In this document: positions 2,878 to 43,921 of the stretch, one piece after another
How positions within the stretch are numbered: position 1 is the stretch's first letter
Layout of the letters: each line of letters starts with the position of its first letter
NCBI GenBank assembly: GCA_014238225.1
Contig: JABABL010000003.1
Location: 1,692-65,691 of the forward strand
Direction of reading: 5' to 3'
From: Mycoplasmatales bacterium
GTDB taxonomy: Bacteria > Bacillota_I > Bacilli_A > Mycoplasmatales > JABAAY01
Length of the DNA stretch: 64,000 bases
Made by a program: the position numbers and the translations under genes
Notes under the pieces: model-generated
What the model saw: only the letters and a program-made list of their open reading frames with translations
Told to the model about the DNA's origin: nothing
Database searches by the model: none

Positions 2878-4854
2878 ATGCGAAAAAATACAAGGAAAAA
2901 AGTAAGGAACATAGCCATTATAGGTGCCGCGTTAGGATTAACGGCAGGGGGATCTGCTGGAATAGGTGTGGCTGTAGGACAACATGCTATTGGAGCACCC
3001 CAATCTGTACAAAATAATGTTGCACCACCTCCTATTGATTTACCACCAACACCAACACCAACAGCGCCAGATGCTGGGGAAACAGCTACTGTTCAAGCTA
3101 TTTATAATGAAGTTGTAGCAACTTACTTTAATACTATTCCTTTAGTTCTTGATGGTGGAGACATCGGAACAAGTTCTTTTACTAATCTAGATTTATCTAA
3201 CCCAATAAGAGCAAGTGAAGAAATCCCACTGCAAATTGATGCTCTACCTTTAGAACTCGAAAGTCAAGAAAATTTTTTATTACTATTATTTGAATCACTA
3301 GATGATCCTGTTTATAATGCTTTTTTCAATACTGGAACCGTTAGCGACGTATCCTTTAATGGCGTTCGACTAAGAATTTCAAATAGCGATATAGATGATC
3401 AATTACTTGGGACATACGACACAGAAATCACAATAGACGGCTTATCTTTGAATTTTAATCCATTTGGAAATCCTAATGACCCTGCTGTGGCAGCATTCAC
3501 ACAAAGACTGGAATACGGAAGACAATTAGGCGGAAGTACAGATGTTCCAATACTTGGTTCTATTTTAATTGACGACATATTGGTTGATGATGATGAAGGT
3601 GTTAATCTTGAAGATGTTGAGTTAATAGGTGATGAATTGTTACGTAGTTCAATACCACCCGGAACAGAAGCCTTATTAGAAATATTTAGAGTTCAATATT
3701 TTAATGTATCTCTTATTCCCCCATATGAAGAGGGTGACTTTAGAAATGAGTTAATAGATTCTTTCATTTTCCCTAATTTTTTGTCACTATTAGATCAATT
3801 AGGACTCTTTGTTCAAAACTTAGAAGATTTTGATGTTGCTAAAATAACAGGGGCTCAATTGACATACTATAATTCAGATAACATTGTGTACATTGATCCA
3901 AATAATTCCAACTCCCTACAAATCACTTTGCAAGTAGAAAGAATAGTTTTTGAATATGATGGAACATATCACCAATTTAGTTTTATTGAAAATGATTACA
4001 GATCGTTTGTAATTTTTAATTTAATAACTTCTGAAGGCGGCGGAGGATACGATGTTGATGCATACGGTAGTCTGTCACTTGATTTTAATGATTCAGTTAT
4101 TCTTGATGTTCCTGGTGATGGCGAGGAACCAGGCGATGGAAATGGCGAAGAACCAGGAGATGGGAACGGTGAAGAACCAGGCGATGGAAATGGCGAAGAA
4201 CCAGGAGATGGGAATGGTGAAGAACCAGGCGATGGAAATGGTGAAGAACCAGGCGATGGAAATGGTGAAGAACCGGGCGATGGAAATGGTGAGGAACCAG
4301 GTGATGGGAATGGTGAAGAACCAGGCGATGGAACTACTCCCGGATGACAAGGAGATACACCTCAGGCCGTTGTTGATAGAGAAGAGACACATGAATTGTT
4401 TGAAGAATTTTATGCATCTTTGAATAACTCGATTTATTCGCTTAATAGAATTACAAACAGCTCATATTCTCCAACCACACGAACTGAACAAACTTACTGA
4501 CAATTATTAAAAACAGCTTTTGAAGATGAAGTAGGCCCTATTGATGATATTCCGGCTTGAGAATTTATTTACAATATATACGAAATAAAAATTTCTAGTC
4601 ATGATGGGGAAACGGTTTATAAAAATGGTGCTGGCAAAAATGAAGGGGATGTTGAACATATTGCTTCAGGAGTATTAACTTTTAAAATCGACCTAAAAAT
4701 AACAATGGACAATACTGAAATCAAATATTTTACATGGGACATTCACGACATACTATTTACTTCTGGGGGAACAGGCTTAGGAAATCTAGACTATAACATT
4801 GCGCATAACACCAAAACACACTTTAAAAAACTAAAAAACGGCCCTAAAATTTAA
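2878..4854 (+). CDS. Membrane-anchored surface protein, paralog of the lipoprotein family but without a lipobox Cys; carries a (GEEPGDGN)9 repeat (658 aa)
   Basis: ORF 2878..4347 continues in frame through TGA (4345, 4498, 4558) to TAA at 4852-4854. N-terminus is MRKNTRKKVRNIAIIGAALGLTAGGSAGIGVAVGQHAIGAP: positive n-region plus hydrophobic core, with no Cys. The C-terminal part has family-type motifs (FYASLNNSIYSLNRITNSSY). Confidence 0.75.
4120..4335 (+). repeat. Nine head-to-tail 24-bp units (consensus ggYgaRgaaccRggNgatggRaaY) encoding GEEPGDGN x9
   Basis: Read directly: units begin at 4120, 4144, 4168, 4192, 4216, 4240, 4264, 4288 and 4312. They differ only at synonymous or near-synonymous positions and are in frame with the 2878..4854 CDS. 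Confidence 0.95.
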
Positions 4855-4930
4855 AATTACAAAAAGTAAATATTGATTAAAACATAATAATTTGTTTTTT
4901 TAAATATAATTAAATATAAAGGGACAAAAT

Positions 4931-7325
4931 ATGAGTAAAAACAAAAAAGCAATTTTTAACACTATTACAGCATCAACTTTGATCGCAGGAGCGGGGATAG
5001 CAGCTATTGCACAGGCTTGTGCACCCGATAGTCCTGTCACGCCTAATTTACAAAATTCAATTCGTGTTTTTGAAGAACTCAATGGTTATACACAAGGAAC
5101 ATCGCTATCTACGGAAGCTACTCATTTTTTTACAACCTTGCAAGCGGGAATTAGAACTGCGGATACACCTAGTCAACCCAGCAATGCAAATATCGTGAAC
5201 ATTCAAATCAATACATCTATTAGTAATGCGATATCGGCGGACAGTACAGGAGAATTTTTGTCAATTGCGGCAAATGTTTTAACAATTGGTGTTGCAGGTC
5301 AACAAAACCCAGGGGGAGATTCTAGATTTACCAATAACAGAGCAGTACAAATTTCTGGAATTAGATATCGTGATTCTGAAATTATTGATGGTGGTTCTAT
5401 ATTGTCTCCATCAACCTCGTTCCAATCAGTTTCTAACACCACACTTATTAATAATGCTGTTGCTTTGTTAGCTTCTTCAACCTCTAGTCCCTGATGAACC
5501 AAATGCAGCGGCACTCTGAAATGCTCTTCAGGCTTCAGTCATCCAAATTGGGAGCACTAACTCTTCTGTCATAATAAACGATGTAACAATCAACATGGGA
5601 ACAGGAAGTTCAAATGTAATTGTAACAAGCAACTCTTTAACGATTACTCGCGGAGATATTTCCATTGCAGCTAGTGGGGATGCTGGAGTAAATTTCAATT
5701 CGTTATTTAATAATGATTTGGACATGAATGGTTTGGTAATCAGTAATATTCAAGTAATCGCCGGAGAGATTCAGTCCTTGGGGGCCGGTAATGTGACCGG
5801 GTTAAATGGTGTTAGTAATCGCACAATCATTGATAATAACATTCAAAACCTTTACAATGCAAACACTGCGCCACAAGGAGGGCTTGTTCTTTACAATTTA
5901 TTTCAATCAGCAATACAAACCATTCAAGGAAACGAAACAGCTTCGATTACAAGATTTACTATTGCTGATTTAAATTGAATACAAAGTGATGCAGTTTTAA
6001 ATGGAGATAGCACTTCGAATATTTCAATTGCTGCAACAACTTTTACTGGTGAACCAGTCATCAGAATAGAGGCTAGCGGCGGAACTCAAACAATGTTTGA
6101 AAGCAGAAGAAGCATTCTTATACAAAACGTCATTGTCAATAACGGTACTATTGTAAGTGCTGATCCAATTGCCACTGATTCTTTTTATGCAACCACTTCT
6201 TTTGTAGGTGCAATTACGCGAGAGATTCAGGAGATGACGAACACAGACATACCTTTAAACAACACACTTTCTAATGCAATTGTTACAGCTATACAAGCTG
6301 TTCCAAGGCTTGCACCTTCGTCGGCAATTGAATTAACTTTTGTATCAATTAGGGATTTTACCGATGATGTGACCATTACTGAAACAATTACAGAAGACGT
6401 TTATGATATTTCTTTTGCTCAAGATTCTATTACATTTAATTTTCTATCTACAGATAACACTGCTTCTAATTCAACAATTACTAATAGCTTAGGTGTATTC
6501 ACCATTGGAAATATAAGTGTGGATTCTACAGATCCTTCAAATCTTATTGTGCAAGTTCCTTCCATTGAGCTAAATGACTTACTTCCCTTAGATCCTTCAT
6601 CACTAGACGGAGAAGCATTACTACTGAATACAGCTATTGACTTATTAACCAATGGAGGAATATCCTCTAGCACTAATCAAAGTGTTTTACTGAATGCAAT
6701 AACTACAGAGATACAAACCCAAGCAGGAGATAACTCGGTTATTAACAGTATAGAATACCTTGGTACGAATTCAAGTTCTAGTGTCGCTGCAAATCCATCA
6801 GGAGGTAATTTTAATCTTATCTTTGGTGCAGGTAGTTTGCTAATTGATGTTACTACAGAAGCTGGTGATAGCGTTTTTTGATCGAATACGGGAAACTTCA
6901 CTTTATCTCAAATCACAGTAGTAGATCAAGTGTTTAGTGGAACGATAACAACATCATCAAATTTAGAACCATACAACAATGTTGTTTCAGCCACTTATAG
7001 AGCATTTTCAGAAATAACTTCATATACTGCAAGTCAGCCGCCAGTGGGAATATCAGACTTAGCCACTGCTCTTTTAGCACGAATAGAGGCTGCTTTAGAT
7101 AATGGAGTTACTTTGAATAATTTTTCGCTTACAACACCTTTGCTAGCAACACTTGACAACAGTGCTGGAACAAGTGTACAAATTTCACAAGAAAGTGCTG
7201 TGCGCATAGCTATTGTTACTTCTACCCCAGCAGGAACAATTTATGGGCAAATTTATGGAGAAATAGTAAATCCAGTAGATGGAACCATCCCAGACTTAAG
7301 CGGATTAGTGCTGGACTTTTCATAA
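4931..7325 (+). pseudogene. Modular surface lipoprotein (family member) whose reading frame is broken by a +1 shift near 5489-5494. Could be a pseudogene, an off-phase variant or a sequencing error.
   Basis: N-terminus MSKNKKAIFNTITASTLIAGAGIAAIAQAC-APDS has a lipobox. This frame runs 4931..5560 and ends WWTKCSG...EH*. The next frame is open from 5472 to TAA 7323-7325 through TGA codons at 5517, 5976 and 6879. That frame encodes a family mid-module motif (AALWNALQASVIQIGSTNSS) upstream of its first ATG (5595), with no start codon or signal peptide of its own. Confidence 0.55.
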
Positions 7326-8143
7326 AGTCAGCATCGCTTTGTCTTTACAGTCACTAAATTAAATCTGACAAAAAAAACAATTGAATAAATTCTAATAAGC
7401 AAAACATATACAATAAAAGTGCCCGTGGGTATGTTATATTCATTTATGACATTGAGCCGCCACGGGCATTACACTATTCCAGTTAAGTGCACCCACTAGA
7501 TATTTAAGATAACCAATTAAAAATAGAAAAACAAATACTTAAATAAAACATATGAAAATTTTTGTAAGCGCAAAAAGGACTTGGAAAGTAAGACTAGTTT
7601 TATGATCTAGGTGGTCACATGTAGCTGGGATAGTATAACAGTTGCTGGGTAGTTCAATAGTGGTTGTTGTAAGGTTAGCGAACACACAAACAATTCCCTT
7701 CTTGGTGAGGCCTTTCTTTGTTCTCTTAACATTTTTCTCTGAGTAAATAAGTTTTGCAACGTAGATAACGATGTAATGACAGTACGATGAAAAGTGAACA
7801 AATAAAAAAGTATCGATTTCTCTATCGGGTGTCGCGATAAGGAAAACAGCAATAACGAGCGCAGTACAAACTTCAATTGTTGTTGGTTCAGAAATTAACA
7901 AACACGACATAAGAAACACCGGAATGAACGAAGAAGAACAAAAAAATCCAAATGTCCTTGATTAATTTACTAAGATATATTTTTTAGTTTATAAAAGTCA
8001 TTTTAACTTTTGCTACAACTAGAAACACATACTTCAATTCATTTTCCGTGGTTTCGTAATTCACTTTTTAAACAACTTCATTTTAGAATTTAAAAAAGGC
8101 AATAAATCTTTCGCTGTCACAAAAAGAAAGCCTTTTTTAAACT

Positions 8144-8152
8144 TGATATAAT
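8144..8152 (+). promoter_or_regulatory. Putative extended -10 element (TGaTATAAT) for the PTS EIIC gene
   Basis: tgatataat lies 20 nt upstream of the ATG at 8172. No experimental support; sigma-70-like consensus only. Confidence 0.35.
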
Positions 8153-8171
8153 TAAGAAGCCAGTACTTATT

Positions 8172-10715
8172 ATGAACAATACCGTAACCAAAACATCTTC
8201 ACCTAAAAAGAAACAAAATAAAAAAGCACTTTTTACCAGTTCCATTAGTGAAGAAAAACAATCCTTAAAAATTTTTCTTAAATCAGGCCACGTTAGACTT
8301 TACTTCAAAACATTGATTTCTCTAATTAAGGCTAAAGAGATTAAGAATAATAAGACAGAAAAAGAGCAAAAACACAGTTTAATGAATAGTTTTTTGGATT
8401 ATTTTAATAACGACTATAAACAACAAGCGACAACAATAAAAGACAATAATCAACAAGTTAAATTTAACGAACAAAAATTTAACAACTGAATCTCCAATCA
8501 CCGTAATAAAATCCAAACAGAAAAGGCTAAATACAAAAAAACACTTATCGAAAACCACGAGAAAGTCAGTCTTCTTAGCTCATCTCTTCCATTGGGACTT
8601 CCTAAGGTTTCACATTTAAATCACGAGAAAAATAAAGAACTATCAAAAAAAATACACTCCACTTTTGCAAAAAAACATGCATTAGAACTTAAAAAACTAA
8701 GCAAAGGGATTACAGCAGATAAACCTAAAAAGCGAAAATTAGAATTTAAAAAGTTAAAGCAGGAGCAAAAATCAGAAATAAACAAGTTTACTTCTGATTT
8801 TTACATCAAATGCAACGTACTGAAACCGGTATATCTGAAGTTTGCAAAAACAAGAGAATTACTAAAAACAAAAATTTCGAAAATTAACTTTCAAATTATT
8901 CGTTGGGAAAACCTTGAAACCATTAAAAGTGAAAGAAAATCTTACCTAGTTAAAAGTAAAAAACTTTTTAAAACTGTAAAAGAAGACAATCATAAAATTG
9001 AAAATAAGATAAATTCAAAGCTTAAGGAAGTAAAATCTCAACAGGTTAAGTTTAAAGGCAGTTTATCAAAAGTTGCAAAATTAGAAATCAAAAAATTCAA
9101 GTATTTAAGTTCTAGTCTTGTCAGACAAACTTCAAAGTCAAATTTCCAACAAAAATCTGATCCTTTCATTAAGTTTATTACGAAAGCAACTGGAGTATTT
9201 GAACGCAATAGGTATCTTGATACTCTTAAAAATGCATTTGGTAGCCTTATTCCAATAATTATAATTGGTGCTTTGGGAGTTCTTTTTTCAGCGGCAATTT
9301 TTGGTGCTTCAGGAAATGCACAGGCCTCTTTAATGGGAGTAATCTTGCCGAACCAGGTTGATTTTTCTGGCCTGAATCCTGGAAGCACTTACATAGTGGG
9401 AAGCACTGCAGCTACCATTGCAGCATATGCACAAATAATTCTTGTTCCTCTAAACTTTGTCACCCTTGGTTCATTGTCGCTTTACACAGCGTTTCTTTTT
9501 GGATTTTTTCTTGCTAAAAAATCTAACTACAGAACACCATTCTTTGCTGGGCTCTTTTCAATGATGGCCTTTTTGATATCTACAATATCTTTTGCACCAT
9601 TTACTACTCTAATTTTTAACGGAGTTTCTACTAGCGGAACCTCCATTGATTTTCAAGTTGTTTATTTTGGGGCACAAGGACTATTGTCTGCAATAATTGT
9701 TGCTTTAGTTACAACAGAACTATTTTTAATTTTCGATAAAAGCAAAACTCTAAAAATCAAAATGCCTAAAAGTGTTCCACAAGGAATATCAGATAGTTTT
9801 AATTCGCTGATACCTGGAGTTCTTTCTATAGTTTGCTTATCTGCTTTAAATTCAGGGTTTGTTTTATGGGCCACATTTGGGAACGTTAACACTCTTAGAT
9901 TTGAAACAGGTGACCCCAATCCAATAGTTACCATTGATAGATTTTCTCAAGGTTTTGCAACAATGGTTGCCACATTTGTAAATGACCCTTTAATTGCCTT
10001 TGCATCATCGGAAGCCGGTAATATACCTATTGCCTACTTTTATATTTTCACACTATCTCTAATATGATTTTTAGGCCTGCACGGAGCAGCCATTACCCAA
10101 GGAGCATTTTTACCCATTCTTCTGCAAATCCAACAGAACAACTTAACTATTTTCAATGAACGAGGGGCTGTCGGACTGGCAGCAGATGGTGCCATTTTTA
10201 GTTTGCCAACATTCGATGCATACTTATTTTTTGGAGGATGAGGAACGGGGCTCGCTTTCGGAGTGATTACCCTGCTTTTTGGAAAAAACAAAATCCATCG
10301 GAAGATAACCAGCATTGCAGCTCCTGGATTAATATTCAATATTAATGAACCTATTTTGTATGGAATACCTTTTGTTCTAAATTTTCCTATTTTTATTTCC
10401 ATATTAATTTTGCATGCCACACAAATGGGAATGGTAATACTATTTACCGAAGGACTTGGACTTGTTTTACCTTCTTTTAATTTTATTCCCTGGACTAGTC
10501 CAATAATATTTGGTTCCCTCCTCTCAGTGGCCTTTCAACCCGCTACTGTGGCCGCGGGACTAGGACCATTATTCGTTGTGATTCTCCCTTTAATAAACCT
10601 AGCACTAGCGGTAGTTGTATATATTCCGATTACAGTTGTATACAATAAGAGATATATTAAACAAGAAAAACTTAAAATCAGTGCAGGAACAAGACTGCAA
10701 GAAAGCACAGCATAA
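8172..10715 (+). CDS. PTS EIIC component, lactose/cellobiose/chitobiose family, with ~330-aa Lys-rich N-terminal extension (847 aa)
   Basis: ORFs 8172..8489, 8592..10067 and 10263..10715 are in one frame, and the gaps I read have only TGA. The EIIC core starts near 9165 (FIKFITKATGVFERNRYLDTLKNAFGSLIPIIIIGALG). Family signature IFNINEPILYGIPFVLNFP is present. Confidence 0.85.
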
Positions 10716-11833
10716 TGAGAAAAGGCATATCACTATACCCCAATAAAAACAATCAAAAAAAAATACTAGAATATTTGGAGACAGTGAAAAAACATGGTGT
10801 TGATATTGTCTTTACTAGTATGTTGGAATCTGTTAGTAATAGAAAAGAAGCAGAGGAACTGTTTTTGCCTATTTTTAAAAAATGTGACGACCTTAACATA
10901 GAGGTCATGATTGATATGGCTCCTGATGTTTATGAAAAATTGAAAATTAAACCAACCGATAGTGTGTTCTGAAAAGAAATGTTTGTTTCCATGTTGAGAA
11001 TGGACTCAAACAATGATCCACATAGTCTCTACACCTTTCTTCTACAAAATAAAGACATGAAAATCGTTTTGAACGCATCTAACCCGAGCAACGAATTAAA
11101 GGGTTTAGACGACTTTAACACGAGCACTGATCAATTAATAGGATGCCATAACTTTTATCCTCTACTACATACAGCGCTAGGAGAAGACTTTTTTCTAAAA
11201 CAGTCAATTTTCTTCAACAAACATCGTGTGCCACTTTATGCGTTCTTGTCATCACAAGATAAAAGTCAAGAGGGAGTTTTCCCGGAAAACGATAAATTAC
11301 CGACATTAGAGATACTAAGAAACAAAAGTGTTGGGTTTCAGTACAGATACTTTATGGCTACAAATGTAGTGGATGGTTTATTATTTTCCACACAGTTTGT
11401 TCCTGAATCAGAGTTTGCAGAAGTTAATTCCTTTGATTTTCATGCCTGCAGAAACTGATTACAGATAGAATTAGACAAGGAAATTACAAGAGAAGAGAAG
11501 AAAATTGTTCTTGCAATAAATCACACGGTCAGGTGCGATTTATCTGAAAATATTTTGCGCATTTCCGAGAGAAGAATTTCTGCCTCATTAGATAAAGACA
11601 CAGTCATTAAGCCTAGACAATACAAAAAAAACTCTTTTTTACCCGCTGGTTCCATACTTATAATGAACTCTAACTGTGGAAGATACATGGGAGAAATACA
11701 AATAGTGCTTCAGGATGGGGAAATAAAATGAAATAGCACAATGAATTACTGTGGATCTATTTTAGATGATGACTTTCAATACATATTCAAATACATTTAT
11801 ATGCCTTGAAAGTTATTTACCTTTTTTGTTTAA
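10715..11833 (+). CDS. DUF871 / MupG-family 6-phospho-glycosidase-like protein (372 aa)
   Basis: ATG overlaps the EIIC stop (TAATG). N-terminus MRKGISLYPNKNNQKKILEYLETVKKHGVDIVFTSML matches the recalled DUF871 start pattern (lGiSvYp...fTsl). In frame through TGA at 10970, 11456, 11729 and 11807. Length typical (~360 aa). Confidence 0.7.
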
Positions 11834-12157
11834 TTTTTTATCAATCAAAGCAATCATCTCTTGGGATATATCTAATCAATTCATTGCATTCATAAATTGA
11901 TCTTCGGCGTGTATGGAAATAAGTTCCATGCGAGTTACTTCTCCCCGTGCTTCTTTTTTTTGTAGATCTAAATGATGAGTACTAGCTTCTTGCAAGTAAA
12001 ACCTTGCTTTTTCTAGTGATTTATTAACGGACTCTTCATCCTCATCTTTAGCAAATTTTCTCAAGGCAATTACAGAATAGGACTTTGATTGACCGCTGCT
12101 TGCGATGATTTGCATTGCTATTTTGTACTGATCTTCTTTACTAATTTTTGTCATCAA
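11813..12157 (-). CDS. PTS EIIA component, lactose/cellobiose family (114 aa)
   Basis: ORF 11876..12157 extends through TGA 11876-11878 to TAA at 11813-11815. It has the helical EIIA-3 pattern with conserved His in ISIHAEDQFMNA. The 3' end overlaps the convergent DUF871 gene by 21 nt. Confidence 0.85.
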
Positions 12158-12452
12158 AACAAGCCATTATTTTCTGTATAACAGAAGAACCATCCATTAG
12201 TCCATAGTCGGCATGTTCTATGACCAATAAAGGTTTACCGCCCACTTCTTTGGATATTCTTTCTTCCTCATATCTCATTTGTGGACTTAATAAAAAAGCA
12301 TCATATTCATCATAGTATTGAGGAGCGTTGATTAAGGGCATAAAGTTAACTTCAATATCCAAATTGTTGGTTTGACAATGTTCTTTCATATTTTTCACGA
12401 GCATTGAGCTGCTCATTCCTGCATTGCAGATTACTAGTATTTTCTTTTTCAT
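12141..12452 (-). CDS. PTS EIIB component, cellobiose type (103 aa)
   Basis: MKKKILVICNAGMSSSMLVKNM contains the phospho-Cys loop (C-x-AGMSSS) typical of EIIB-3. It overlaps the EIIA start by 17 nt. Confidence 0.85.
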   Translation of the reverse strand: MKKKILVICNAGMSSSMLVKNMKEHCQTNNLDIEVNFMPLINAPQYYDEYDAFLLSPQMRYEEERISKEVGGKPLLVIEHADYGLMDGSSVIQKIMACFDDKN

Positions 12453-13827: not shown

Positions 13828-16818
13828 ATGATAAGTGAAAAGCGAATTTTTTTGGATGTTGATGTTGAAAGACAGTACGACGCGTTTGTTTTTGCTGCGG
13901 ATCAAGCCAAAACACTCGGCATTGCTAACAATACTCAAGCTGTTTTTAAGGCATTAAAGGCACGAGAAGAGGAAGGTTCCACTGGATTGGAAAATGGTTT
14001 TGCCATACCTCACGCGAAAAGTAAAGCGATAAAAGAGGCCGCAATACTTATACTTAGATTCAAAAAACCTGTGGTTGACAAGCATTGAAAAACCCTAGAC
14101 GACTTACCTATTCAGGTGGGTGTGTTTCTGTTAGTTCCGGAAGAAAAGGTTTCAAAAACACATATTAATTTGTTAAGCAAAGTTTCACAACTTCTTTTAG
14201 AAGACGAAGTCTGTACTATTTTGAAAAATGGGAATAAAAAGGAGATCATTAAAGCCTTAACGGTAGAAAAAAAGACTTATGTTCCCTCCTCAAAACCTTC
14301 TAAAGAAACCCAACAGAATGGCACAAAATTGAAAAACAAAACCATTGTTGGTGTTTCTTCCTGTCCAGCAGGATTAGCACACACATATTTAGCAGCCAAA
14401 GCTTTAGTTAAAGCAGGTGAAAAAATAGGTGCCAAGGTAAAAATAGAAACCCGAGGAACAACAGGAATTGATGATGAAATTTCCATCAGCGATTTAGAGG
14501 GAGCAGATGCTGTTATATTCGCTAGCGATGTAAGGGTTGATCAAAATAAATTTGTTGGTAAAAGATTTTATTCCTGCTCTACAAAAGATGCTATTAAAGA
14601 CCCGCTTGGCTCTTTAGCCTTAGCACTGAAATCAAAGTCATTTGTTGTAGGAGAAGGTAGAAAATTTAACGGCAACCGTCCATTAGATAAAGTAATGCGT
14701 TGATCGCACGATACATTTTCTGAGCCTTTTTGACTTGCACTTTTGTTAATTGCCTTTACTGGAATTGCATACGGCATATTATATGCATTTCAAACATATC
14801 AAGGAACGTCGAACGATTTTTTGCGCGTTTTATTGGGTGGAGAGTTTTCTATAGGTGACAGAACTGTTTCTGGCAGTAATATATCGGGCTTTTTTGCAGC
14901 GAGCGGAGGATTTGGAATAATACAAATAGCAACAGCTATTTTTGCTGGGTTCATCGGTTATCGAATAGGTGGTAGACCAGGGTTTGGTGTTGCACTTGTT
15001 GCTGGGTTTTTTACTTCTGCCGGAGGTGCTGCAGCAGCAAACGGGGAAGCAGTTATTAATTTTTACAACCCTTATGCAGCAGTTTTTGGCAATGGCATAC
15101 AACTAGTACTTATTTGACCACTTTATGGAGCACTAATAGGTGTACTTGGTGGATTATTTGCAAAGTACATATACCTAGGAATTAAGAAAACTAAATTAAA
15201 CGGGTTTTTAAAAACACTAGTATTGTTTTTAGCATTGCCTTTTGTAACAGCACTTAATATTTTTATTTCCAACTACATGATTGTTTACCCCTTATTTATA
15301 ATTATTAATCCTATTTTGCAAGGCGTTATTATCAGCGGTACTACGCTCGCACAGTGATTTACTATGGAATTATGGTGATTGGTTTTAAGTTTAGGCATAA
15401 TCGCGGCAATTCCTTGTGTTTACTTTGCATTTAAAAATCCTGTTGTCGAAAGTTTTATAAAAGAAACATCGGAAAAAATAAAAAATAAACGTGAAAAAAA
15501 AGGAGCTAAACACTACTTAAATGCTACATATAAATACTTCATGTCCGGAATATCTTTTTTCCTAGTTGTTTTAACTGCTACATCTCTTCTCTGGGGAGCT
15601 GTAGGTTTGCTCGCAATCCCAACAATAAGAGGGGCCTTTCCGCCGTTTCTTACAGAGCTCCTGGAAACATTATTTTCTAGAGCTGGTGGTTTTACAACTG
15701 ACGGCACATGAACAAGTTATACAACCGCAGGACTAATAACACAGTTAATAAATAATGTTGGATTTTCAACGTTTACTCTTGTCACCATTATATTGGGCTC
15801 TTTTATTGCATACTCAATAGGAGGAATTGTTGCATTTATGCCTGCATTAATAATGGCAACACTTGGTAATGACACTTCTGGATTTTTGGGAGCCGTTGTA
15901 TCGGGATTTTTAATTGGCTTTTTAATCAGATATTTGTACATAGTTGTTTTGAAAATAAGAAACAGAATTAGAAAGAACCCTAAGTGATGGAAATGAAGTG
16001 TTTTTGTTTTTGCATCCTACTGAATAATTCCTGTAATTGGTTTTCTTTCCCTTTTGGTCGGTACATTTCTTATAAACGGAATCATCGGAATCGTAAATGA
16101 AATAGTTGTTGGGGGCATTCAAAATTTTCAAGGCCTCTCTATTGGTGGAACAGAGGGCATCTTTAATATAAACGGTAACTTTATTGTTGGGTTGATTATT
16201 GGAGCAATGATTTGTTTTGACTTAGGCGGACCAATTAATAAAATTGCTGTTGCCGCTGCACTAGCAATAAGAGGCAATAATATTTATACACCAGGAACAG
16301 AAGAACTATTCGTGCCTTTGGCAGCACAAGCCGCTGCTATCTCAGTTGTTCCATTGGGATTATGATTTTCTACATTGATTTTTAGAAAAAAATATTCTAA
16401 GCAAGAGCACTTAATAGTTGAGAGCGGAGCAACTCTAGGATGAGTTGGTATATCAGAGGGAGCTATTCCCATGTTAGCGAAGGACCCTTTTCGCATGATA
16501 CCTGTTAATGTTATAGGTGGTGCAATTGCTGGTGGTTTAGCCGGAGGATTTGGATTAGGAGCAGTAGCAACTATTAATTCACCAATCGGTATTTTTGTTG
16601 GTGTAATACAACCACTCGAGTTCCCTGTTTATCCATTTGCATGACTATTAACAACATTTGCTGGAATTTTCTGGGTCGCAATTGTTTATGCTCTCGTAAA
16701 GAAAAGAGTTCCTAAAGAAGAAAAGGACGTTGTCATAAAGGAATTTAGAGAACGAAAAATGGAGCGAAAAGAAAAATGAGATAAGGTTTTTAAAAAGAAA
16801 AAACCCGCTCTTGTTTAG
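13828..16818 (+). CDS. PTS fructose/mannitol-family EIIA-EIIB-EIIC fusion, MngA/FruA-like (996 aa)
   Basis: Seven track ORFs (13828, 14116, 14743, 15379, 15793, 16054 ...) are all in one frame. The gaps I read have only TGA. EIIA-2 His loop GFAIPHAKS; EIIB loop VGVSSCPAGLAHTYLAAKAL; then a multi-TM EIIC. TAG stop at 16816-16818. Confidence 0.85.
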
Positions 16819-16841: not shown

Positions 16842-19541
16842 TTAGTAAACATGCTTTAGTTTAATGATCAAAGTTATAAAAGACTTTGCAGGAACAACAT
16901 TATCAAATATTTCATCTTTTTCAAGTTTAGCATCACTTAATCTAACACTCAACAACGATTTTCCACTTAAAGTCACTTCTTCATCTTTCTCAGAAGGATT
17001 GTACAACCTAAGAAGAACACCATCTTCATTCATGTGCCTAAGGGTACTCATGCCAATATGTCTATTTGAAATTTTTAAATCAATAGTTTTATTGATTTTT
17101 TTCTCCAAAAAAGTATCAACCTTTTGGTTTTCAGGTCTTAAAATTTTAAAGTTAGCGATACTGTTTTCAAAAAAGTACTTTTTTTGACGTTGGTAATAGA
17201 CGTATTGACTATTAAAAATTTGATATCTAGAAACAATGTGTTTTTTGTCTTTTACAATTGATATTCCAAATTCAAATTTCATTTCTTTTTGCAACGTTCC
17301 ATCAGGAGTTTCATGTTTGAATGTTGATGTTCCAGATGGTCTTCCAGGCCTTCATAACAATTCGGTTTTGCCTAAAAATGATGGTGTTCTAAATAAAACA
17401 TAACTAATTTTGTCTTTTGTCGGAGTAAATTCACCTATACCTTTATTAAGGGTGACAAAATTACTTTTGCTATTTTCAAAAAACACAACACCGTTATTTT
17501 GGTACACAGGCGCAGGATATTCTTGGTATTTTAGATCTTTTCATTTCTGTTCATCAACAGTTGGACTACAATCATTGTAGATTCAGTGTAGCAAGGATTT
17601 TGCACATTTAGAATCCTTGTTATTTTTGAAGCCTAGTTTTCATCGTGTTTCTGTAGATTTATTTTTAGTTTTTAGTTTGATATTAAGAATTTTACTGTGT
17701 TTGGCGAGAGATACACTTCATTTAAAAATTTGAACACTTGTTTCTGTCAAGGCTTCATTCATGAAGTATGTTATTTCTGTTTCATATTTTAATGTTTTTA
17801 AATAGTTAGAATCATGGACAACAATATTTCTGTTTTTTTGAGAAACAATTATAGAACCACTGAATACTTTTGAAGGAGAATAATCATAACTATCGCCTTT
17901 ATCAAAATCTGCATCAATCATCATGACATTTTTGTATGTTTTATCGGTTCTTTTGTCCACATACTCGGCTCCGTTTTCAGTTACACGAAAGGATATGGAT
18001 TTATTTTGTATGAAACCTGTTTCCTTTTTTGAGCTAATTTGAGAAAAACAAGGCAAAACTTTATTTTGATATTCAAAAGAGATTTTTCTTCAAGACATTC
18101 ACTCCATCTCGGTTTCCAATGCTATTGTTACATAGTAAAATTCATAGTCCAGATCTGGGTGATTGTCAACATTGTGAAATTTAAAATCGTGGTAACCGAG
18201 TTTTTTTGTGATGGAAAAATTTGTCACAATTAAGTCGTCAACTTTTAATGCAAAGTTTAAGTGATCAACCACTAATTTAAAAACATATGTTTGTACTCTT
18301 TCTGTTGGATAAAGGTTAATTAAAAATCCCGAGTCATCTTCCGGCGCCAAAAAATAACTTAAATCCCGCATCAGTATATTTAGTTCAGTTTGAAATATTG
18401 ACTTCGCTCTTTCAAGTCTTCCAACAATTCCTCTATTAGTTCTGTCAGAATTACATCCACCTAGACTATCATGAGCAGAGCACTTTATCATTTCTCCAAT
18501 TGCGTGGTGAACTGTGCCATTCTTTTGAACATTATCGAGAATTGTTTTACAAACAGTATAAAAAGGGAAAAGCACATTATATAAAAGTCGTTCAGTTTCT
18601 CTAAACAGTAGTTTTATATCCATCCGGTTGGAGGAAATAGTTCTATGTGTTCTTGCTTTAAAAGGTTCTCTAATGTTTCCACTGATAGTGGGAATTGACT
18701 TGCTAGTTTCAAGGGACTGAAAAAAATCCTCAATAGAACTAATTTTTCAAGTATTTTCTGTATCAAGTTCATCAGCTTTTTTTATAAAAAACGGTAGGGA
18801 GGGTATTATGGGAAATTGATCCGCGCCAAAAGGAGCTAAAATATGCTTAATGCTTCCATCAGAGGATTCAGATATTTTATTTACTTTTTCAACAATGTCT
18901 TTTCCTACTTTTTCAAAACGGAACTGTTCGCTTTTTTTTCAAGCCCCAACGGTTAGGTTTTCCACTTCATCAAAAAACGAAGAAACAAAACCTGTATATC
19001 CAAAATAAAAATTATAGGATAAAACACTGTCTTTGTTTGGAGAAACAAAGTAATTTATTACGCTTTTTGCAATTTGTTCTGGAGATATTCCTCTTCAAAA
19101 CACTCAATTTTTAAAGCCAAAAGTTTTTAAGAAGGACGGTAAATTTGAGGGAAATCCAAAGGAATCGGGTGTATACATTGTTACGGGAATAGGTAGATTA
19201 TGTTTTTTACTGAAATTACGAGCCAGCTCCATGTTCATCAGTATCGACTCAGGAGAGGAATTAAAATAATCTTGTTGTACAAAGGAAGGGGGAACAGCCA
19301 GTTTTTTTGTTGACATTAGTTTAATAATCAAATCTTCGTAATCTGGATTATTTGTAATAAAATCTGTTAACAAAGAAAGCTGACCATCCAAATTAAAATG
19401 AGGGAAATGACGATCATTATTTAAAACGTAGAGAACTTGTTTTAGATCCCTTTCCAACAACACATCAGACTCTTCTTGTGTAAAATACCATTCTCTATCC
19501 CAATGAGTATGGGGTAGGAAATGTATGGTTCAATTTTTCAC
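16842..19541 (-). CDS. Glycoside hydrolase family 38 alpha-mannosidase, MngB-like (899 aa)
   Basis: ORFs 19104..19463, 18099..18623, 17718..18056 and 16842..17294 are in one frame. All three gaps were read codon by codon and hold TGA only. The N-terminal metal-site motif HFLPHTHWDREWYF lies at ~19488-19520. Probable GTG start at 19541, preceded by an in-frame TAG. Confidence 0.85.
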
Positions 19542-27629: not shown

Positions 27630-29744
27630 ATGAAAAGAAGGACAAAAAGACTTACACAAGCAATCTTAGGAATTGGAGCATTAAGCACCGGTGCTGCAGT
27701 TACAACAGTTGCACAAGCTTGTAATTTAGATGATCTTATCGGAACAGTCGATAACGAAACTTTAGAATCAGCATTCGCAAACGTCTTAAACACAATGCAC
27801 AGTTACAACGGTTCCTTTTCTAACAATGATATATCGTGAAATGACCCAGTCAGTAAAATAATTCTTAATACAACAATGCAATCACTAACTTCATTCTTAT
27901 CCGATACCGTTGCGCAAAGAGATGTACACGTTGTAGACATTAAAGCATTTAGTTTCGACTATAGTATTGATACAGAAAACGAATTCACTGCGGAAATATC
28001 TAACATAAACGGTTCTGCACTATTAAGTGATGACAGAGTTGTATCAATTGTACCGGACGGTAATGCAAGCGTTTCAATACTTAACTTATCGCCAGAAAAT
28101 TATAGAAATGCTTCTATTCAATGGTCGGGAATAAAATTTGACATTGAAAACCCTCGTGATCCAAGTAACGGAGGAGACACTCCAATAAACCCAGTGGATC
28201 CCACGGATCCAGGAGAATTCGATAGTGCTAAAGATGTATTTTTTAATGCTGTTAGCGAATTAACAAATTATACTTCTGGAAAACAAATCAGCGATAATTC
28301 CAGAGCAATACTGAACTCCTTCGGGAATTACAGTTATAAATCGATAACTGAACTTAATTTTTCTTTTGTTATCAGAGAAGAAGTAAACGCCAAGGAAGCA
28401 GACACTTTTTATGCTGAAATTCTTGACTTTTCAGGAGTGGTTGTAACTTACAATAATCAATCTGTTAATGTGGTGTCCACTTCCACTGCTGGTATTGGTA
28501 TAGCTGGGTACAGTTCTAGTAATTTCTGAGGAGCTGGGTGATATGGAATTATTGAGGGTGGAGAAGCGCCAAACGATACTGCTCCACTACCTGAAAACCC
28601 CGCATTAGTCAACAACCCTTACAATCCTGCTAACGGCCAAATGCCAATCAGTGCAACAAAATGAGGCACTGGCTTTGCTCCATTTTACGATACCGCAGCT
28701 TGACAAAGTGAATGGGGATATAAGGACGCTTGAATGGGTCAAGGAATTACCAATCCACTAGCTTTTACTCAAGCGACAGGTTTGAAAAGTTTTACTACTG
28801 CCTTTATACAACAAGATGGACAAGTTAGTGACCGTATACACGGCTCATTGGCTGGTTTAGATAATGATCAAACTGAAGCAGGAATGGACTTTTTCGAAAA
28901 CGCAAAAGGATATATGGATTATATAAAAGAGAATGACGGACATATAACGCTATCGTTTGGTGGCGCTGGAGGAAGCCCTATTTGAACATTCGCTGCAGAA
29001 CACGGCTTTAGTCAAGCTGATTTAAACGCAGAAATGAATAGAATTATTGATTTATATGATGTGGATGCTTTAGATTTTGACATAGAAGGCGCACATGCTA
29101 ATCCAGAATTTCCAGGAGTTGAAGAAGGAATTAAAATGCTAGCAAATTCTCTTGTTGAAATAAGAAACAAAAAGCCAAACATGAAAATAAGTATGACGTT
29201 ACCTGTCCTTGGTCGTGGACCAAATGGAAACGACAAAGAAACATTATGAGTTACTGGACTACAAGCAGCTAACGGGTTAGGGTGAGTTGATGTATTTATG
29301 GATAAACTTGGGCCAACCTTTATCACTAATGCCATGAGCATGGATGGTGGAGACCTAGGTTTTGCTTACTATTCAAATATGGAAGATGGCGGTGCACAAT
29401 TTGTTATTGACAGTATTGCTGGAGATGGCAACGGAGATAATGGTGTTAAAAACCAAGTTAAAGCTTCCGCTGCAAAATATGGTTACACTCTTACTGAAGC
29501 TCAAGCTTGAGCATTAACAGGCGTAACACCTATGATTGGACAAAACGACACCTTACCTCAAAGACTTTATCCTGATGGATGAAGAAAAGTTGTTCAATTT
29601 GCTAAAGATAAAAATATGGGAATGCTTTCTTATTGAGCAGGGGAAAGGGACCACTACACTGGCAGCACCGGTCCATATAATAACATCGGTATTGAAGGAA
29701 CAAAGCCTTTCGAATACATGGCAATTGCTATGGGCATAGCATAG
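27630..29744 (+). CDS. Surface lipoprotein: two family-type N-terminal modules fused to a GH18 chitinase / endo-beta-N-acetylglucosaminidase-like catalytic domain (704 aa)
   Basis: AAAGGAG RBS; MKRRTKRLTQAILGIGALSTGAAVTTVAQAC-NLDD lipobox. Five track ORFs are in one frame joined by TGA. GH18 catalytic motif D-A-L-D-F-D-I-E at 29064-29087; also ITLSFGGAGG, GVTPMIGQND and LSYWAGERD. TAG stop at 29742-29744. Confidence 0.85.
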
Positions 29745-38548: not shown

Positions 38549-38668
38549 CTCTACTCTACTGTAATAATACAGTAAAATGCAACAATGGAATTGAGAAAGC
38601 AAAAGAAAAAATTTAGGTATTAAATTATTTTTTTTTCTTGTATAGTAGAAATAATAAAAAGGAGCAAA

Positions 38669-43435: not shown

Positions 43436-43921
43436 GTGAACACTGACATATCTTCTGAGACTGAACTTTCTAAAAACATCATAAAATCAATAAACTTTAT
43501 AATTAAATATCATTATTCCTCTCCCCTTGAGAATCAAAACACCAATAAACTTACACAACTAAGAATGCAAAAGCTTTTATTTTTTGCCTATATTTTATAT
43601 TTCAAGAATAATAAAAGTTTTCTTTTCCAAGAAAATTTTAGTGCCTGAAACTATGGCCCTGTCGTTGAACAACTCTTTTTCGTATCGAAGGGAAAAACCG
43701 AGATTATTTTTGAAAACAACACATTTATTATTCCAATAAAGGAAAAGGATTTTTTCATATTGAGAAAAAAAATTGGAAAATACTTTGTGTTTTATAATGA
43801 AAAATCCACCTTTGAACTAGTAAAAATGTCTCACGACTCTTTGCTATGAAAAGAAAGTAAAAGAAAAAAAACAGGTGTAATTTTAAAAAAAGATATACGA
43901 AATATGTTTTCTAAAAAATAA
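43436..43921 (+). CDS. Panacea / DUF4065 (SocA/GepA-like, antitoxin-type) domain protein (161 aa), GTG start
   Basis: KLTQLRMQKLLFFAYILYFKNNKSFLFQENFSAWNYGPVVEQLF matches the recalled DUF4065 core (T.lKLqKLLYfa....g.pLf.e.f.AW..GPV....y). The W is a TGA codon (43646-43648). Extends to TAA 43919-43921. Confidence 0.7.

Follow-up and report, generated by a model that had tools for sequence, protein, structure and literature searches.

Three Mycoplasmatales genes for predicted lipid-anchored surface proteins share tandem modules of two types

The window, that is, the whole 64,000-nt stretch of DNA analyzed here, comes from the genome of an uncultured member of Mycoplasmatales, in which TGA encodes Trp (table 4). 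A preliminary description had listed seven related genes for modular surface proteins in it. With table 4 the seven ORFs are present at the coordinates below, while they are fragmented with table 11, and together they occupy 12,745 nt, or 19.9% of the window. They are designated as g1 to g7.

2878..4854, + strand: g1, a 658-aa acidic protein with a signal- or anchor-like N-terminus (…VAVGQHAIG), without a lipobox Cys
4089..4355, + strand: tandem 24-nt repeat of g1, EEPGDGNG nine times (12 times in another assembly)
4931..7325, + strand: g2, a module lipoprotein, frameshifted in the window (two open frames); the intact allele has 797 aa
5486, + strand: extra A (CCTCTAGTCCC vs CCTCTGTCCC) frameshifting g2, from the alignment of the window to L008
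27630..29744, + strand: g3, a lipoprotein (TVAQAC) with a GH18 catalytic domain
29827..31758, − strand: g4, a module lipoprotein of 643 aa with five type A modules
40668..43412, + strand: g5, a module lipoprotein of 914 aa
51846..52835, − strand: g6, a 329-aa lipoprotein (LLAQSC), with the signal peptide and lipobox alone in common
55772..56362, + strand: g7, a 196-aa lysine-free lipoprotein (AVAQMC), compared with enriched type A by HHalign
56881..57978, + strand: lgt, prolipoprotein diacylglyceryl transferase (Pfam PF01790, E 7.8e-27)

The 2,395 nt of 4931..7325 are not one reading frame, as had been assumed; a 1-nt insertion at 5486 splits g2 into the frames 4931..5560 and 5595..7325. Intact g2 (797 aa) is present in an independent assembly (L008 12126..14519), one indel and two SNPs apart.

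In profile searches controlled with decoys, a module family was supported for g2, g4, and g5 only. Two types of modules were recognized. Type A (~115 aa) occurs five times in g4, twice in g5, and once in g2, and type B (~128 aa) occurs four to five times in g2 and four times in g5. Each of the three proteins contains 5–7 tandem modules, which are strongly diverged (~16–30% identity). In g2 the signal peptide is followed by three type B modules, a divergent B, another type B, and a type A-like C-terminus.

4931..5020, + strand: g2 lipoprotein signal peptide, ending in AIAQAC
5048..5452, + strand: g2 type B module 1 (aa 40-174; iterative HMM with decoys, iE 1e-25)
5429..5834, + strand: g2 type B module 2 (aa 167-301), across the frameshift (iterative HMM)
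5811..6209, + strand: g2 type B module 3 (aa 294-426; iterative HMM)
6210..6605, + strand: g2 divergent type B-like module (aa 427-558; HHalign against type B)
6606..7013, + strand: g2 type B module (aa 559-694; iterative HMM)
6972..7322, + strand: g2 C-terminal type A-like module (aa 681-797; HHalign against type A, 29-40% probability, E 3e-4 to 6e-4)
31669..31758, − strand: g4 signal peptide, AIAQTC
31264..31644, 30931..31269, 30601..30936, 30241..30603, 29860..30222, − strand: g4 type A modules 1-5
40668..40760, + strand: g5 signal peptide, AVAQSC
40788..41192, 41175..41573, 41565..41933, 41940..42278, + strand: four g5 type B modules
42279..42650, + strand: g5 B-like segment, outside the module assignments
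42651..42992, 42993..43382, + strand: two g5 type A modules

From a single seed, the iterative HMM of type B collected 16, later 18, modules with no shuffled decoy and no other ORF, and the type A set was stable at 29 modules. Modules 1 and 2 of g4 were recovered in leave-one-out searches with E ~1e-6, and the type A modules of g4 matched the enriched HMM with iE 1e-19 to 1e-27. Residues 660-775 and 775-914 of g5 were aligned to type A by HHalign over ~100 columns (E 1.7e-4 and 3e-4; scores 27–28 against 10 ± 1.7 for column-shuffled controls), and HMMER later found them at 1e-18 to 1e-21. For the divergent module of g2, HHalign against type B gave 23% probability and E 9e-4 over 93 columns (score 24.7; control maximum 14.8). 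In a neighboring genome, the protein P0022 has the same module order as g5, four B and then two A, and an untrained 1046-aa protein adjoining it contains a tandem array of nine type A modules (iE 1e-5 to 1e-15). When signal peptides were removed, only g2 and g5 exceeded shuffles in pairwise alignment (z=6.9), and g4 is linked by profile methods via the type A modules in g5 and g2. The enriched A and B profiles are in register over 88 columns with a score of 17.1 against a control maximum of 10.5, at a low HHalign probability (2%); the two types are probably distant relatives.

Every motif string quoted in the preliminary description was found in the proteins, and the motifs recur more often than in composition-matched shuffles, in a test biased by regular expressions written after the data were seen. 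The claim that the proteins are built from reiterated units stands for a subset, with units of ~115-130 aa, but not the claim of a single module type, as two exist. Internal repeats were confirmed in g3, g4, and g5 (z ~8–11 against shuffles) and are weaker in g2. Neither Pfam nor NCBIfam includes a match to the modules, in agreement with their description as no named domain; they are two ~115-130-residue domains, probably related, that were not described previously.

The real lineage-restricted family consists of three of the seven flagged genes, g2, g4, and g5, which encode predicted lipid-anchored surface proteins. In an exhaustive database search with a shallow two-sequence profile, it was confined to a few genome bins of related uncultured Mycoplasmatales; this profile missed even g2, and the actual family may thus be larger. 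A further paralog of 423 aa is encoded ~3 kb upstream of the window start.

The structures of both modules were predicted with AlphaFold2 from shallow alignments of 10-13 paralogous modules. The models of g4 module 2 (type A; pLDDT 90, pTM 0.81) and g5 aa 418-537 (type B; pLDDT 88, pTM 0.83) are both alpha+beta, in the order helix, loop, helix, and antiparallel sheet, and their secondary-structure maps are co-linear. Foldseek revealed no significant match for either module in PDB or BFVD, and the sole weak match that recurred for both types, and in both databases, was the NTF2-like/cystatin-like fold. As in such 'cone' folds (PDB 2r4i, the LDB1/2 self-association domain, and the PBP2a/PBP5 N-terminal domain), N-terminal helices lie on a curved antiparallel sheet in the models. 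None of these matches reached E <= 0.001, the TM-scores were 0.3-0.5 for type A and <=0.33 for type B, and the RMSD often exceeded 8 Å. NTF2-like domains are not known to occur as tandem arrays in lipoproteins. The modelled likeness is a resemblance of topology, not membership.

An n-region, a hydrophobic region, and a terminal A-Q-x-C are present in six proteins, g2 to g7, as had been noted. AQ.C occurs exactly six times in 22,854 aa (ORFs >=150 aa), always at residues 26-31 of these signal peptides. The peptides are not near-identical, as had been stated; their protein identity is ~35-46%, and the 5′ DNA column identity is 52%. Nor does A-[IV]-A-Q-x-C mark the family, since it is also carried by the GH18 enzyme g3 and the unrelated g6. 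In three related genome bins, A-Q-x-C was seen on 13 of 13 lipoproteins including one enzyme, and it therefore looks most simply like an atypical lipobox of the whole lineage rather than a family marker. As in canonical Lgt/Lsp lipoproteins, the n-region is positively charged, the h-region is hydrophobic, the Cys (residue 29-31) is invariant, and Lgt is encoded in the window. The canonical lipobox is [LV]-3 [ASTVI]-2 [GAS]-1 C+1 (PMC8048626), from which A-3 Q-2 x-1 C+1 departs at all three positions in 13/13 cases: the Leu/Val and small/aliphatic positions are invariant Ala and Gln, and position -1 is free, with Thr, Met, Gln, and Glu included. The lgt gene in the window fits the prediction of g2-g7 as lipoproteins, and its product would be expected to attach the lipid to the A-Q-x-C cysteine. 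As the lipobox is off canon at all three positions and no Lsp was seen within the window, processing is a step that we infer.

The other four genes bear on the view that all seven constitute one paralogous family with a single ~130-aa module (opener, middle, and closer) and form an adhesin or antigenic-variation repertoire. This view is unlikely, and relatedness is demonstrable for g2, g4, and g5 only. An opener-like helix (hydrophobic-x-x-hydrophobic-N-x-L-x-x-Y) does follow the lipobox in g2-g7 and stands at the start of most modules, types A and B are in register above controls, and g7 has the lysine-free trait in common with the family. The middle and closer motifs, taken for family-wide landmarks, are nevertheless confined to g2 and g5 (type B), the g4 module being of a different type (~115 aa, type A); g1, g3, g6, and g7 were never recruited by the HMMs at E<1e-3, and the common signal peptide is better explained by an organism-wide export signal. 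The parts of g3 are as follows.

27723..28229, 28212..28634, + strand: two N-terminal repeats, marginally type A-like (repeat z=8.2)
28758..29681, + strand: GH18 catalytic domain with the DALDFDIE motif (Pfam PF00704, 26.7 bits; PDB 9buf, E 6e-19)

The Asp/Glu-rich g1, which had been counted among the seven members, lacks the lipobox Cys and differs in composition; its similarity is N-terminal and signal-like only, its C-terminus is borderline against type B (HHalign, E ~0.01, 34 columns), and it is unrelated to the module family. For g6, no A or B module was detected by Smith-Waterman, HMM, or HHalign, also when it was used as a profile with its ortholog (77% identical), and no internal repeat was found; by its sequence g6 is unrelated. 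The g3 repeats (E 0.004-0.007, ~85 columns in register) and g7 (E 0.005, 41 columns, score 20.5 against a control maximum of 11.0) beat all column-shuffled controls against type A in HHalign, with low probabilities of 6-9%; the type A HMM gave E 0.015 for g7. By its sequence, g3 is a GH18 glycosidase lipoprotein whose marginally A-like N-terminus may be a remote relative, and g7 is possibly a single remote type A-like module, a candidate rather than a confirmed member. What g3, g6, and g7 have in common with the family is only the lipoprotein export signal of the organism.

The mature parts of the family proteins are acidic, Cys-free, and essentially Lys-free, with three Lys in 2,263 residues against a gene median of 10%; the mature part of g7 has none in 165 aa. 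Substitutions involving Lys account for 1/217 in the family and 72/419 in neighboring genes (P = 4e-13). Arg remains at ~2.4%, and thus the proteins are not trypsin-proof. Lysine deserts were described from Actinobacteria with pupylation, their phages, and proteins of the eukaryotic ubiquitin system (PMC10665810, PMC10169902), and in Rickettsia the lysines of outer-membrane proteins are shielded by methylation against host ubiquitin tagging (PMC8232902). As in those cases, the stretches without usable lysine are long here and have been maintained in evolution. In Rickettsia the lysines are masked, whereas here they are nearly absent, and unlike the described deserts, those here are putatively exposed lipoprotein regions of 165-1,046 aa in a low-GC organism with 10% Lys on average in its other genes.

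It is reasonably likely that the family forms a stable, acidic, lysine-free, lipid-anchored surface coat or adhesin rather than a repertoire of switchable antigens. Export through Sec would depend on the K/R-rich n-region and the hydrophobic h-region, Lgt would attach diacylglycerol to the Cys of the atypical lineage-wide lipobox, and Lsp would cleave off the signal peptide. The lipid anchor would then hold a beads-on-a-string array of modules projecting from the wall-less cell as a stable, negatively charged coat, possibly an adhesin; an adhesin or ligand-binding role is a putative one. The absence of lysine may shield the coat against some form of attack or chemistry that is directed at lysine in the host.

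By analogy with surface glycan-binding lipoproteins and with the CBM or stalk domains that glycosidases carry in other bacteria, the modules might bind carbohydrate or serve as spacers in the foraging of host glycans, which we regard as improbable, although it is compatible with the surface coat and would specify its ligand. In g3 the two marginally A-like repeats lie between the lipid anchor and the GH18 domain, but they resemble type A only weakly (E 0.004-0.007). Other products encoded in the window include a GH38 alpha-mannosidase, a MupG-like 6-phospho-N-acetylmuramidase, and PTS EIIC components; the family genes are not beside glycosidase genes, except g4, which adjoins g3. Neither Pfam nor fold comparison indicated a CBM or lectin, and the aromatics typical of sugar-binding platforms are few (Trp 0.3%, Tyr 1.6%).

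It is very unlikely that these lipoproteins constitute a system of phase or antigenic variation, in which members are turned on and off or change in size and so escape host immunity. In the Vsp, Vlp, Vsa, Vpma, VlhA, and P35/Mpl families of Mycoplasma, the 5′ DNA is conserved, the loci are clustered, recombinases take part, switching depends on simple repeats or invertible promoters, and the short tandem repeats are nearly identical. The genes here resemble them as several paralogous surface lipoprotein genes of a Mollicute with similar signal peptides, repetitive mature regions, and evolution faster than that of housekeeping genes; the members are the least conserved genes of their neighborhoods (77-82% against 85-96%). 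The antigenic variation proposed in the preliminary description nevertheless finds no counterpart in the DNA: neither the 5′ regions nor the DNA upstream is conserved from one member to another, no homopolymer >=8 or SSR is present in any member 5′ region, and there are no promoter-flanking inverted repeats, no DNA repeats common to members, no near-identical repeats, and no recombinase among the annotated subset of neighboring genes. One member, g2, is frameshifted in the window assembly, but outside a slippery tract; an SSR and homopolymer scan found no homopolymer or simple repeat at 5486. The repeat number of g1 differs between assemblies (9 and 12). Within one protein, the modules are ancient folded domains of ~115-130 aa only 16-30% identical, and thus too dissimilar for repeat expansion to act on. 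The genes are not clustered but scattered among housekeeping genes, and their positions are kept in a sister genome: the g4 ortholog is syntenic and 80% identical, as is the g5 ortholog P0019 (82%), which follows groES-groEL. The dN/dS of the family is 0.15-0.19, against 0.02-0.10 in neighboring genes, which indicates purifying selection.

That an extreme composition, rich in N/S/T/I/G, produced the apparent modules and motifs is scarcely credible, being effectively refuted for g2, g4, and g5 and still the default for g6 and g1: shuffled proteins already score high in Smith-Waterman (mean ~137 for g2 against g5), composition-corrected BLAST of g2 against g5 is weak (E 0.009), and most pairwise comparisons are at chance, yet the iterative HMMs, as long as they were stable, took in none of several hundred shuffled decoys, leave-one-out tests recovered held-out modules, an independent protein supplied nine untrained modules, HHalign scores were 2-3 times those of column-shuffled controls, and AlphaFold2 reached pLDDT 88-90 for both modules from 10-13 aligned modules.

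The window has a G+C content of about 33%. The standard bacterial code (table 11) breaks up all seven genes analyzed here (g1 to g7), while table 4, in which TGA encodes Trp, gives clean long ORFs, which places the genome among the Mollicutes. The seven ORFs, which the preliminary description regarded as one family of modular lipoproteins with a fixed lipobox, are all present under table 4:

2878..4854, forward strand: g1, no lipobox Cys
4931..7325, forward strand: g2, A-Q-x-C signal peptide 4931..5020
27630..29744, forward strand: g3, GH18 chitinase/endoglycosidase-like enzyme, A-Q-x-C signal peptide 27630..27722
29827..31758, reverse strand: g4, A-Q-x-C signal peptide 31669..31758
40668..43412, forward strand: g5, A-Q-x-C signal peptide 40668..40760
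51846..52835, reverse strand: g6, A-Q-x-C signal peptide 52749..52835
55772..56362, forward strand: g7, A-Q-x-C signal peptide 55772..55864

g2 does not form a single reading frame in the window; one frame covers 4931..5560, and a second stays open from 5472 until its stop at 7325. An independent assembly of this region (ENA ERZ26869290 ctg341107, designated L008) has g2 intact as one 797-aa gene, from which the window differs by an extra A at 5486 and two SNPs. The site of the insertion is outside any homopolymer or simple repeat and is not slippery. The insertion is either an assembly error or an ordinary frameshift representing a real inactivating polymorphism. The window shares synteny with contigs of "MAG: Mycoplasmatales bacterium isolate bin29s" (GCA_014238525.1), and the window proteins are present in public collections within tiny clusters. 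A promoter/terminator scan around g1 and g2 found 27 signals compared with 20 ± 4 expected, which is at the level of chance.

All-against-all BLASTP and composition-corrected BLAST detected only the similarity of signal peptides and were too insensitive. When the signal peptides were cut off and the mature parts were compared with composition-matched shuffles, only the pair of g2 and g5 stood out (z = 6.9); the pair of g1 and g2 was marginal and the remaining pairs were at chance. The bias to Asn, Ser, Thr, Ile, and Gly gives high scores even to shuffled sequences. Internal repeats were detected against shuffles in g4 (z = 10.6), g3 (8.2), and g5 (8.0), and weakly in g2 (3.4). They were absent in g6, and the signal from g1 came only from a 24-nt tandem repeat encoding EEPGDGNG. 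This tandem repeat, at 4089..4355, has nine copies in the window and 12 in L008.

g4 consists of five modules of ~115 aa, each starting at a "...IVNxINxLSNY" helix. These are designated as type A modules. An HMM built from the g4 modules alone finds only g4, which is circular, and thus leave-one-out HMMs were used instead and later validated on untrained proteins. The held-out modules 1 and 2 of g4 were recovered at E about 1e-6, whereas the next ORF reached no better than E 0.07; module 5 was marginal. The iterated type A profile took a shuffled decoy at round 4, and only the stable set of 29 modules was used. The untrained modules near two relatives, P0022 and P0020, validate type A independently. 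On L009, a contig from the sample of the sister MAG, an ORF of 1046 aa at 9103..12243, whose true start may be upstream, contains nine tandem type A modules (iE 1e-5 to 1e-15). A truncated gene adjoining P0020 has a type A module at its end (iE 5e-13).

The iterative search seeded by one g5 module, with shuffled decoys included, converged on modules of ~128 aa, designated as type B, and recruited neither decoys nor other ORFs. Four type B modules each were found at the N-terminus of g5, its syntenic ortholog P0019, and P0022, and four were found in g2. Two more were recovered later in a 423-aa lipoprotein at 3923..5194 on the reverse strand of L008, about 3 kb upstream of the window start. This paralog carries the lipobox AAVAQAC and aligns with type B (HHalign 95%, E 4e-8), and thus this genome has more members of the family than those in the window. 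Three recurring landmarks had been proposed for the modules. Every quoted motif string is present, but two of the landmarks, the "middle" one (…IQTI.GN…) and the "closer" (…ISNI.V..G.I.S.G…), are restricted to g2 and g5 and are features of type B.

The proteins are mosaics, and this links the sets of type A and type B. For residues 660-775 and 775-914 of g5, HHalign gives alignments of about 100 columns with type A at E 1.7e-4 and 3e-4; they score 27-28, whereas column-shuffled controls score 10 ± 1.7. The enriched type A HMM recognizes both segments at 1e-18 to 1e-21. The C-terminus of g2 is type A-like (E 3e-4 to 6e-4), and its residues 427-558 are a divergent type B module (E 9e-4). P0022 has four type B modules followed by two type A modules, in the same order as g5. 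It was the sole distant relative, beyond g5 and its ortholog, among 1.84 billion representative proteins in an exhaustive HMMER search with a two-sequence full-length profile. As this profile missed g2, the spread of the family is a lower bound. Type A and type B align directly in register over 88 columns with a score of 17.1, compared with the control maximum of 10.5 (E 0.02), which is consistent with a distant common ancestry. The identity between modules is 13-47% overall and 16-30% between different module positions.

Proteins were assigned to the family by a decoy-controlled module-HMM domain iE < 1e-3, or by a full-length in-register HHalign alignment well above column-shuffled controls. 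This assigned g2, g4, g5, the 423-aa protein of L008, P0019, P0020, P0022, and two further proteins from related genomes, the nine-module protein (L009_1046) and L011_141. The real family in the window consists of g2, g4, and g5, instead of the seven members originally counted; g1 and g6 are outside it, and g7 and the N-terminus of g3 are borderline. Near P0022 on L009, family members form a small cluster, unlike those in the window. Next to P0022 is also a lipoprotein of 758 aa (6175..8451; AAIAQAC), designated L009_758, which neither module HMM matches and which starts with a helix like that of g3 ("AVTELVNY").

The type A and type B HMMs recruited none of g1, g3, g6, and g7. With enriched profiles, the two N-terminal repeats of g3 align with type A in register over about 85 columns (E 0.004-0.007), and g7 does so over 41 columns (E 0.005). 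These alignments are above all column-shuffled controls, yet non-significant, and the g3 N-terminus and g7 are possible remote relatives. The alignment of the g1 C-terminus with type B covers 34 columns and is borderline (E about 0.01). g6 shows nothing against either type, even as a profile with its ortholog. Residues ~377-684 of g3 correspond to a GH18 catalytic domain. The PF00704 score of 26.7 bits is just below the cut-off of 29.6; phmmer matches the exochitinase structure PDB 9buf with E 6e-19, and the D-x-x-D-x-D-x-E motif is intact as DALDFDIE. g3 differs in kind from the module proteins and is assigned to the GH18 family. Likeness in the signal peptide does not define a gene family.

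Pfam-A includes no family matching g4, g5, g6, or g7 at E ≤ 0.1. NCBIfam gave nothing meaningful for g2, g4, g5, g6, or g7; the sole match of g2 scored 18 bits, below the cut-off of 100, and counts as noise. Structures were predicted by AlphaFold2 with alignments of paralogous modules. The type A model (module 2 of g4; pLDDT 90, pTM 0.81) consists of helices at 2-15 and 25-37 and strands at 43-48, 57-59, 63-77, 80-96, and 99-107. The type B model (g5 418-537; pLDDT 88, pTM 0.83) consists of helices at 4-13 and 26-41 and strands at 46-52 and 58-60, followed by shorter strands from residue 63. The secondary-structure maps of the two models are co-linear. Foldseek searches against PDB and BFVD gave only matches with E ≥ 0.016, none of which is significant at E ≤ 1e-3. 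For both modules, the weak top matches are alpha+beta cones of the NTF2-like or cystatin-like kind. Against the NTF2-like fold, for which E ≤ 1e-3 or TM > 0.5 was taken as significant, type A reaches a best E of 0.018 and TM 0.49-0.51, and type B a best E of 0.058 and TM at most 0.33. These results agree with the preliminary description in that the module is not a named domain. Within the reach of the searches made, it is taken to be an undescribed, lineage-restricted domain. Invariant or nearly invariant positions are only one Asn in helix 1 and one turn Gly in type A, and one Ile in type B. This scarcity argues for a structural or binding domain and against an enzyme.

The pattern AQ.C appears six times in 22,854 residues of the window ORFs of at least 150 aa, every time at residues 26-31 of a signal peptide, and the six proteins are g2 to g7. 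They have a start rich in Lys and Arg and an uncharged hydrophobic core, and no other window ORF of at least 90 aa has an A-Q-x-C signal peptide. Bacterial lipoprotein signal peptides usually have a basic n-region followed by an h-region that is hydrophobic and uncharged, with an invariant Cys around residue 15-35. By this architecture, g2 to g7 are borne out as the six predicted lipoproteins described at first, and g1 is excluded by its lack of Cys. Their signal peptides had been called near-identical; they are alike in pattern, yet their identity is about 35-46%. At the N-terminus of g1, ...VAVGQHAIG stands in place of ...AVAQSCG of g5, with Ala at the position of Cys (…VGQHA… compared with …VAQSC…). 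It looks like a lipoprotein signal minus its lipidation site.

The textbook lipobox is [LV] at -3, [ASTVI] at -2, [GAS] at -1, and C at +1 (PMC8048626). In contrast, all 13 lipoproteins compared from three related genome bins carry Ala at -3 together with Gln at -2; at -1, nine have Ala, Ser, or Gly, and four have Thr, Met, Gln, or Glu. These 13 comprise the six window lipoproteins, a further one just beyond the window, three orthologs from the sister genome, P0020, P0022, and L009_758. The canonical set of residues is not present here, and the assignment as lipoproteins is based on the Cys and the architecture of the signal peptide. An lgt gene is at 56881..57978 (PF01790, E 8e-27), and no Lsp gene was seen in the 64-kb window. 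Because A-Q-x-C is found also on the GH18 enzyme g3 and on the unrelated g6, it is most simply read as a lineage-wide signal for export and lipidation and not as a family marker. It implies an altered specificity of Lgt and Lsp in this lineage. If A-Q-x-C is processed as predicted, Lgt and Lsp would accept a wider range of substrates than is known. Such a lipobox would be missed or down-scored by standard lipoprotein predictors.

The mature parts of the module proteins, of g7, and of L009_758 contain almost no Lys, as follows:

g2, mature region 5021..7322: 0 Lys in 767 aa
g4, mature region 29830..31668: 0 Lys in 613 aa
g5, mature region 40761..43409: 3 Lys in 883 aa
g7, mature region 55865..56359: 0 Lys in 165 aa
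423-aa paralog of L008: 0 Lys in 392 aa
P0020: 0 Lys in 612 aa
P0022: 3 Lys in 750 aa
Nine-module protein of L009: 2 Lys in 1,046 aa
L009_758: 1 Lys in 728 aa

g2, g4, and g5 together have three Lys in 2,263 aa, and the Lys-free stretches of g5 are 143-296 aa long. In the 32 other genes of the window, the median of Lys is 10% and the minimum is 2.3%; even at 2.3%, the depletion in the core family has a binomial P of 4e-19. The signal peptides of the same proteins contain 3-4 Lys per 30 residues. The Lys-free mature parts have about 2.4% Arg, about 0.1% His, and a net charge of -14 to -75, and Cys is absent from them except for one residue near the C-terminus of g4. Lys-poor, but not Lys-free, are g6 (1.7%), the N-terminus of g3 (2.3%), its GH18 domain (4.9%), and g1 (2.1%). 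Between the two MAGs, only one of 217 substitutions in the mature parts of g4 and g5 involves Lys, compared with 72 of 419 in the neighboring genes (P = 4e-13), which indicates that the exclusion of Lys is actively maintained. It persists even though the genome is AT-rich and Asn, one mutation from Lys, accounts for 11% of the Lys-free proteins. The PTS EIIC protein at 8172..10715 is a contrast to the Lys-free lipoproteins; it has an extremely Lys-rich N-terminal extension of ~400 aa with no domain match.

A lysine desert has been defined as a region without Lys that spans 150 aa or more, or 50% or more of the sequence (PMC10665810), and the mature parts of g2, g4, and g7 fit this definition. 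Lysine deserts were described for pupylating Actinobacteria, their phages, and proteins of the eukaryotic ubiquitin system (PMC10665810, PMC10169902). A literature search found no description of comparable Lys-free surface proteins for Mollicutes.

Surface lipoproteins are the main host interface of wall-less bacteria and are usually treated as variable antigens. The reading of the present genes as an antigenic-variation repertoire is unlikely. Phase-variable mycoplasma systems have conserved 5' UTR and signal-peptide DNA among paralogs, whereas the 5' DNA of the seven genes here (150 nt upstream and 120 nt coding) shows a mean column identity of 52% and no conserved block. Those systems are switched by homopolymers, simple sequence repeats (SSRs), or invertible promoters with a recombinase. 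Here, the 40 homopolymers and two SSRs all lie outside the 5' regions of g1 to g7, which contain no homopolymer of 8 or more. No inverted repeats flank their promoters, and no recombinase was seen among those neighbors that were annotated. Near-identical tandem repeats, the basis of size variation in those systems, are not seen in the modules; no DNA repeats were found in g2 to g7 or in common between members, and the 24-nt tandem repeat is only in the non-member g1. Those systems are also hypervariable between strains or species. Here, g2 differs at three positions between two assemblies. The lipoprotein genes lie scattered among groEL, pdh, uvrA, and lgt, in positions that are kept in the sister genome. 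The identity of orthologs between the two MAGs is 82% for g5, 80% for g4 (over 364 aa), and 77% for g6, with 85-96% for neighbors, and dN/dS is 0.15-0.19 for the lipoproteins and 0.02-0.10 for the neighbors. Selection on the lipoproteins is relaxed yet clearly purifying. Thus, the hallmarks of antigen switching are absent from the window. The first reading holds in part, both as an observation and in its interpretation; the family stands for g2, g4, and g5, and the antigenic-variation repertoire is unlikely. P0020, which is 47% identical to g4, could have been taken as its ortholog under very fast evolution. The syntenic sister gene with 80% identity rules this out, and P0020 is placed as a more distant relative or a paralog of g4.

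The family is filed as a kind of Mollicute surface lipoprotein family, in which the atypical lipobox and the Lys-free regions stand out. The evidence points to a different design from variable antigens: stable, syntenic proteins built from a domain without a described family or solved structure, a lipobox that departs from the textbook one everywhere except Cys, and the exclusion of Lys over hundreds to a thousand residues in an organism with otherwise 10% Lys. The proteins would be exported by Sec and lipidated at the Cys of A-Q-x-C, and the signal peptide would be removed. The mature protein, a string of 5-7 domains, would then extend outward from the membrane of the wall-less cell, and the arrays may form a stable, negatively charged coat, possibly functioning as an adhesin. 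Lys may be excluded because a process of the host or the environment targets exposed Lys.

A tentative explanation, which is possible but rather doubtful, is that the absence of Lys evolved as a shield of the wall-less cell, together with a rewired lipobox with a free -1 position and altered Lgt/Lsp specificity. The coat would then be made of a private alpha+beta domain in lipid-anchored arrays, purged of exposed Lys, and tagging, cross-linking, or cleavage of the surface by the host via Lys would be blocked. If the organism is intracellular, ubiquitylation and xenophagy would be evaded. If it is extracellular, transglutaminase clotting, quinone tanning, and Lys-specific proteases would be. 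Rickettsia methylates its surface lysines and masks them from host ubiquitylation (PMC8232902), whereas Lys is missing here from the sequence itself, which would be a genetic equivalent if the shield explanation is true. If the avoidance of Lys is a defense against a lysine-directed host mechanism, it would offer a new signature, easy to search for, of proteins that uncultured symbionts expose to their hosts.

Host glycans are one candidate for a ligand of the modules, if they have one, based on the type A-like repeats of the GH18 enzyme g3 (27630..29744) and on the following nearby genes:

8172..10715: PTS EIIC
10715..11833: MupG-like 6-phospho-N-acetylmuramidase
16842..19541: GH38 alpha-mannosidase

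Neither a carbohydrate-binding family nor an aromatic platform was found. The ORF at 13828..16818 looks like another PTS component. The gene set of the window suggests a theme of glycan scavenging, in which a MupG homolog is notable for a wall-less organism.

Two other loci were recognized in the window. Pyruvate dehydrogenase E1, encoded on the reverse strand at 35810..38602, is one AceE-type chain of ~912-930 aa with the Pfam labels Transketolase_N, PDH_E1_M, and Transketolase_C_1. Mollicutes usually carry a two-subunit E1 alpha/beta pyruvate dehydrogenase. Directly after g5, a gene at 43436..43921 encodes a small protein with the SocA_Panacea domain, which is associated with antitoxins of toxin-antitoxin systems. 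Downstream from this gene, three assemblies of the same organism (L004, L005, and L006) differ from one another, and L005 shows a second, inverted copy; these differences suggest a variable or mobile spot.
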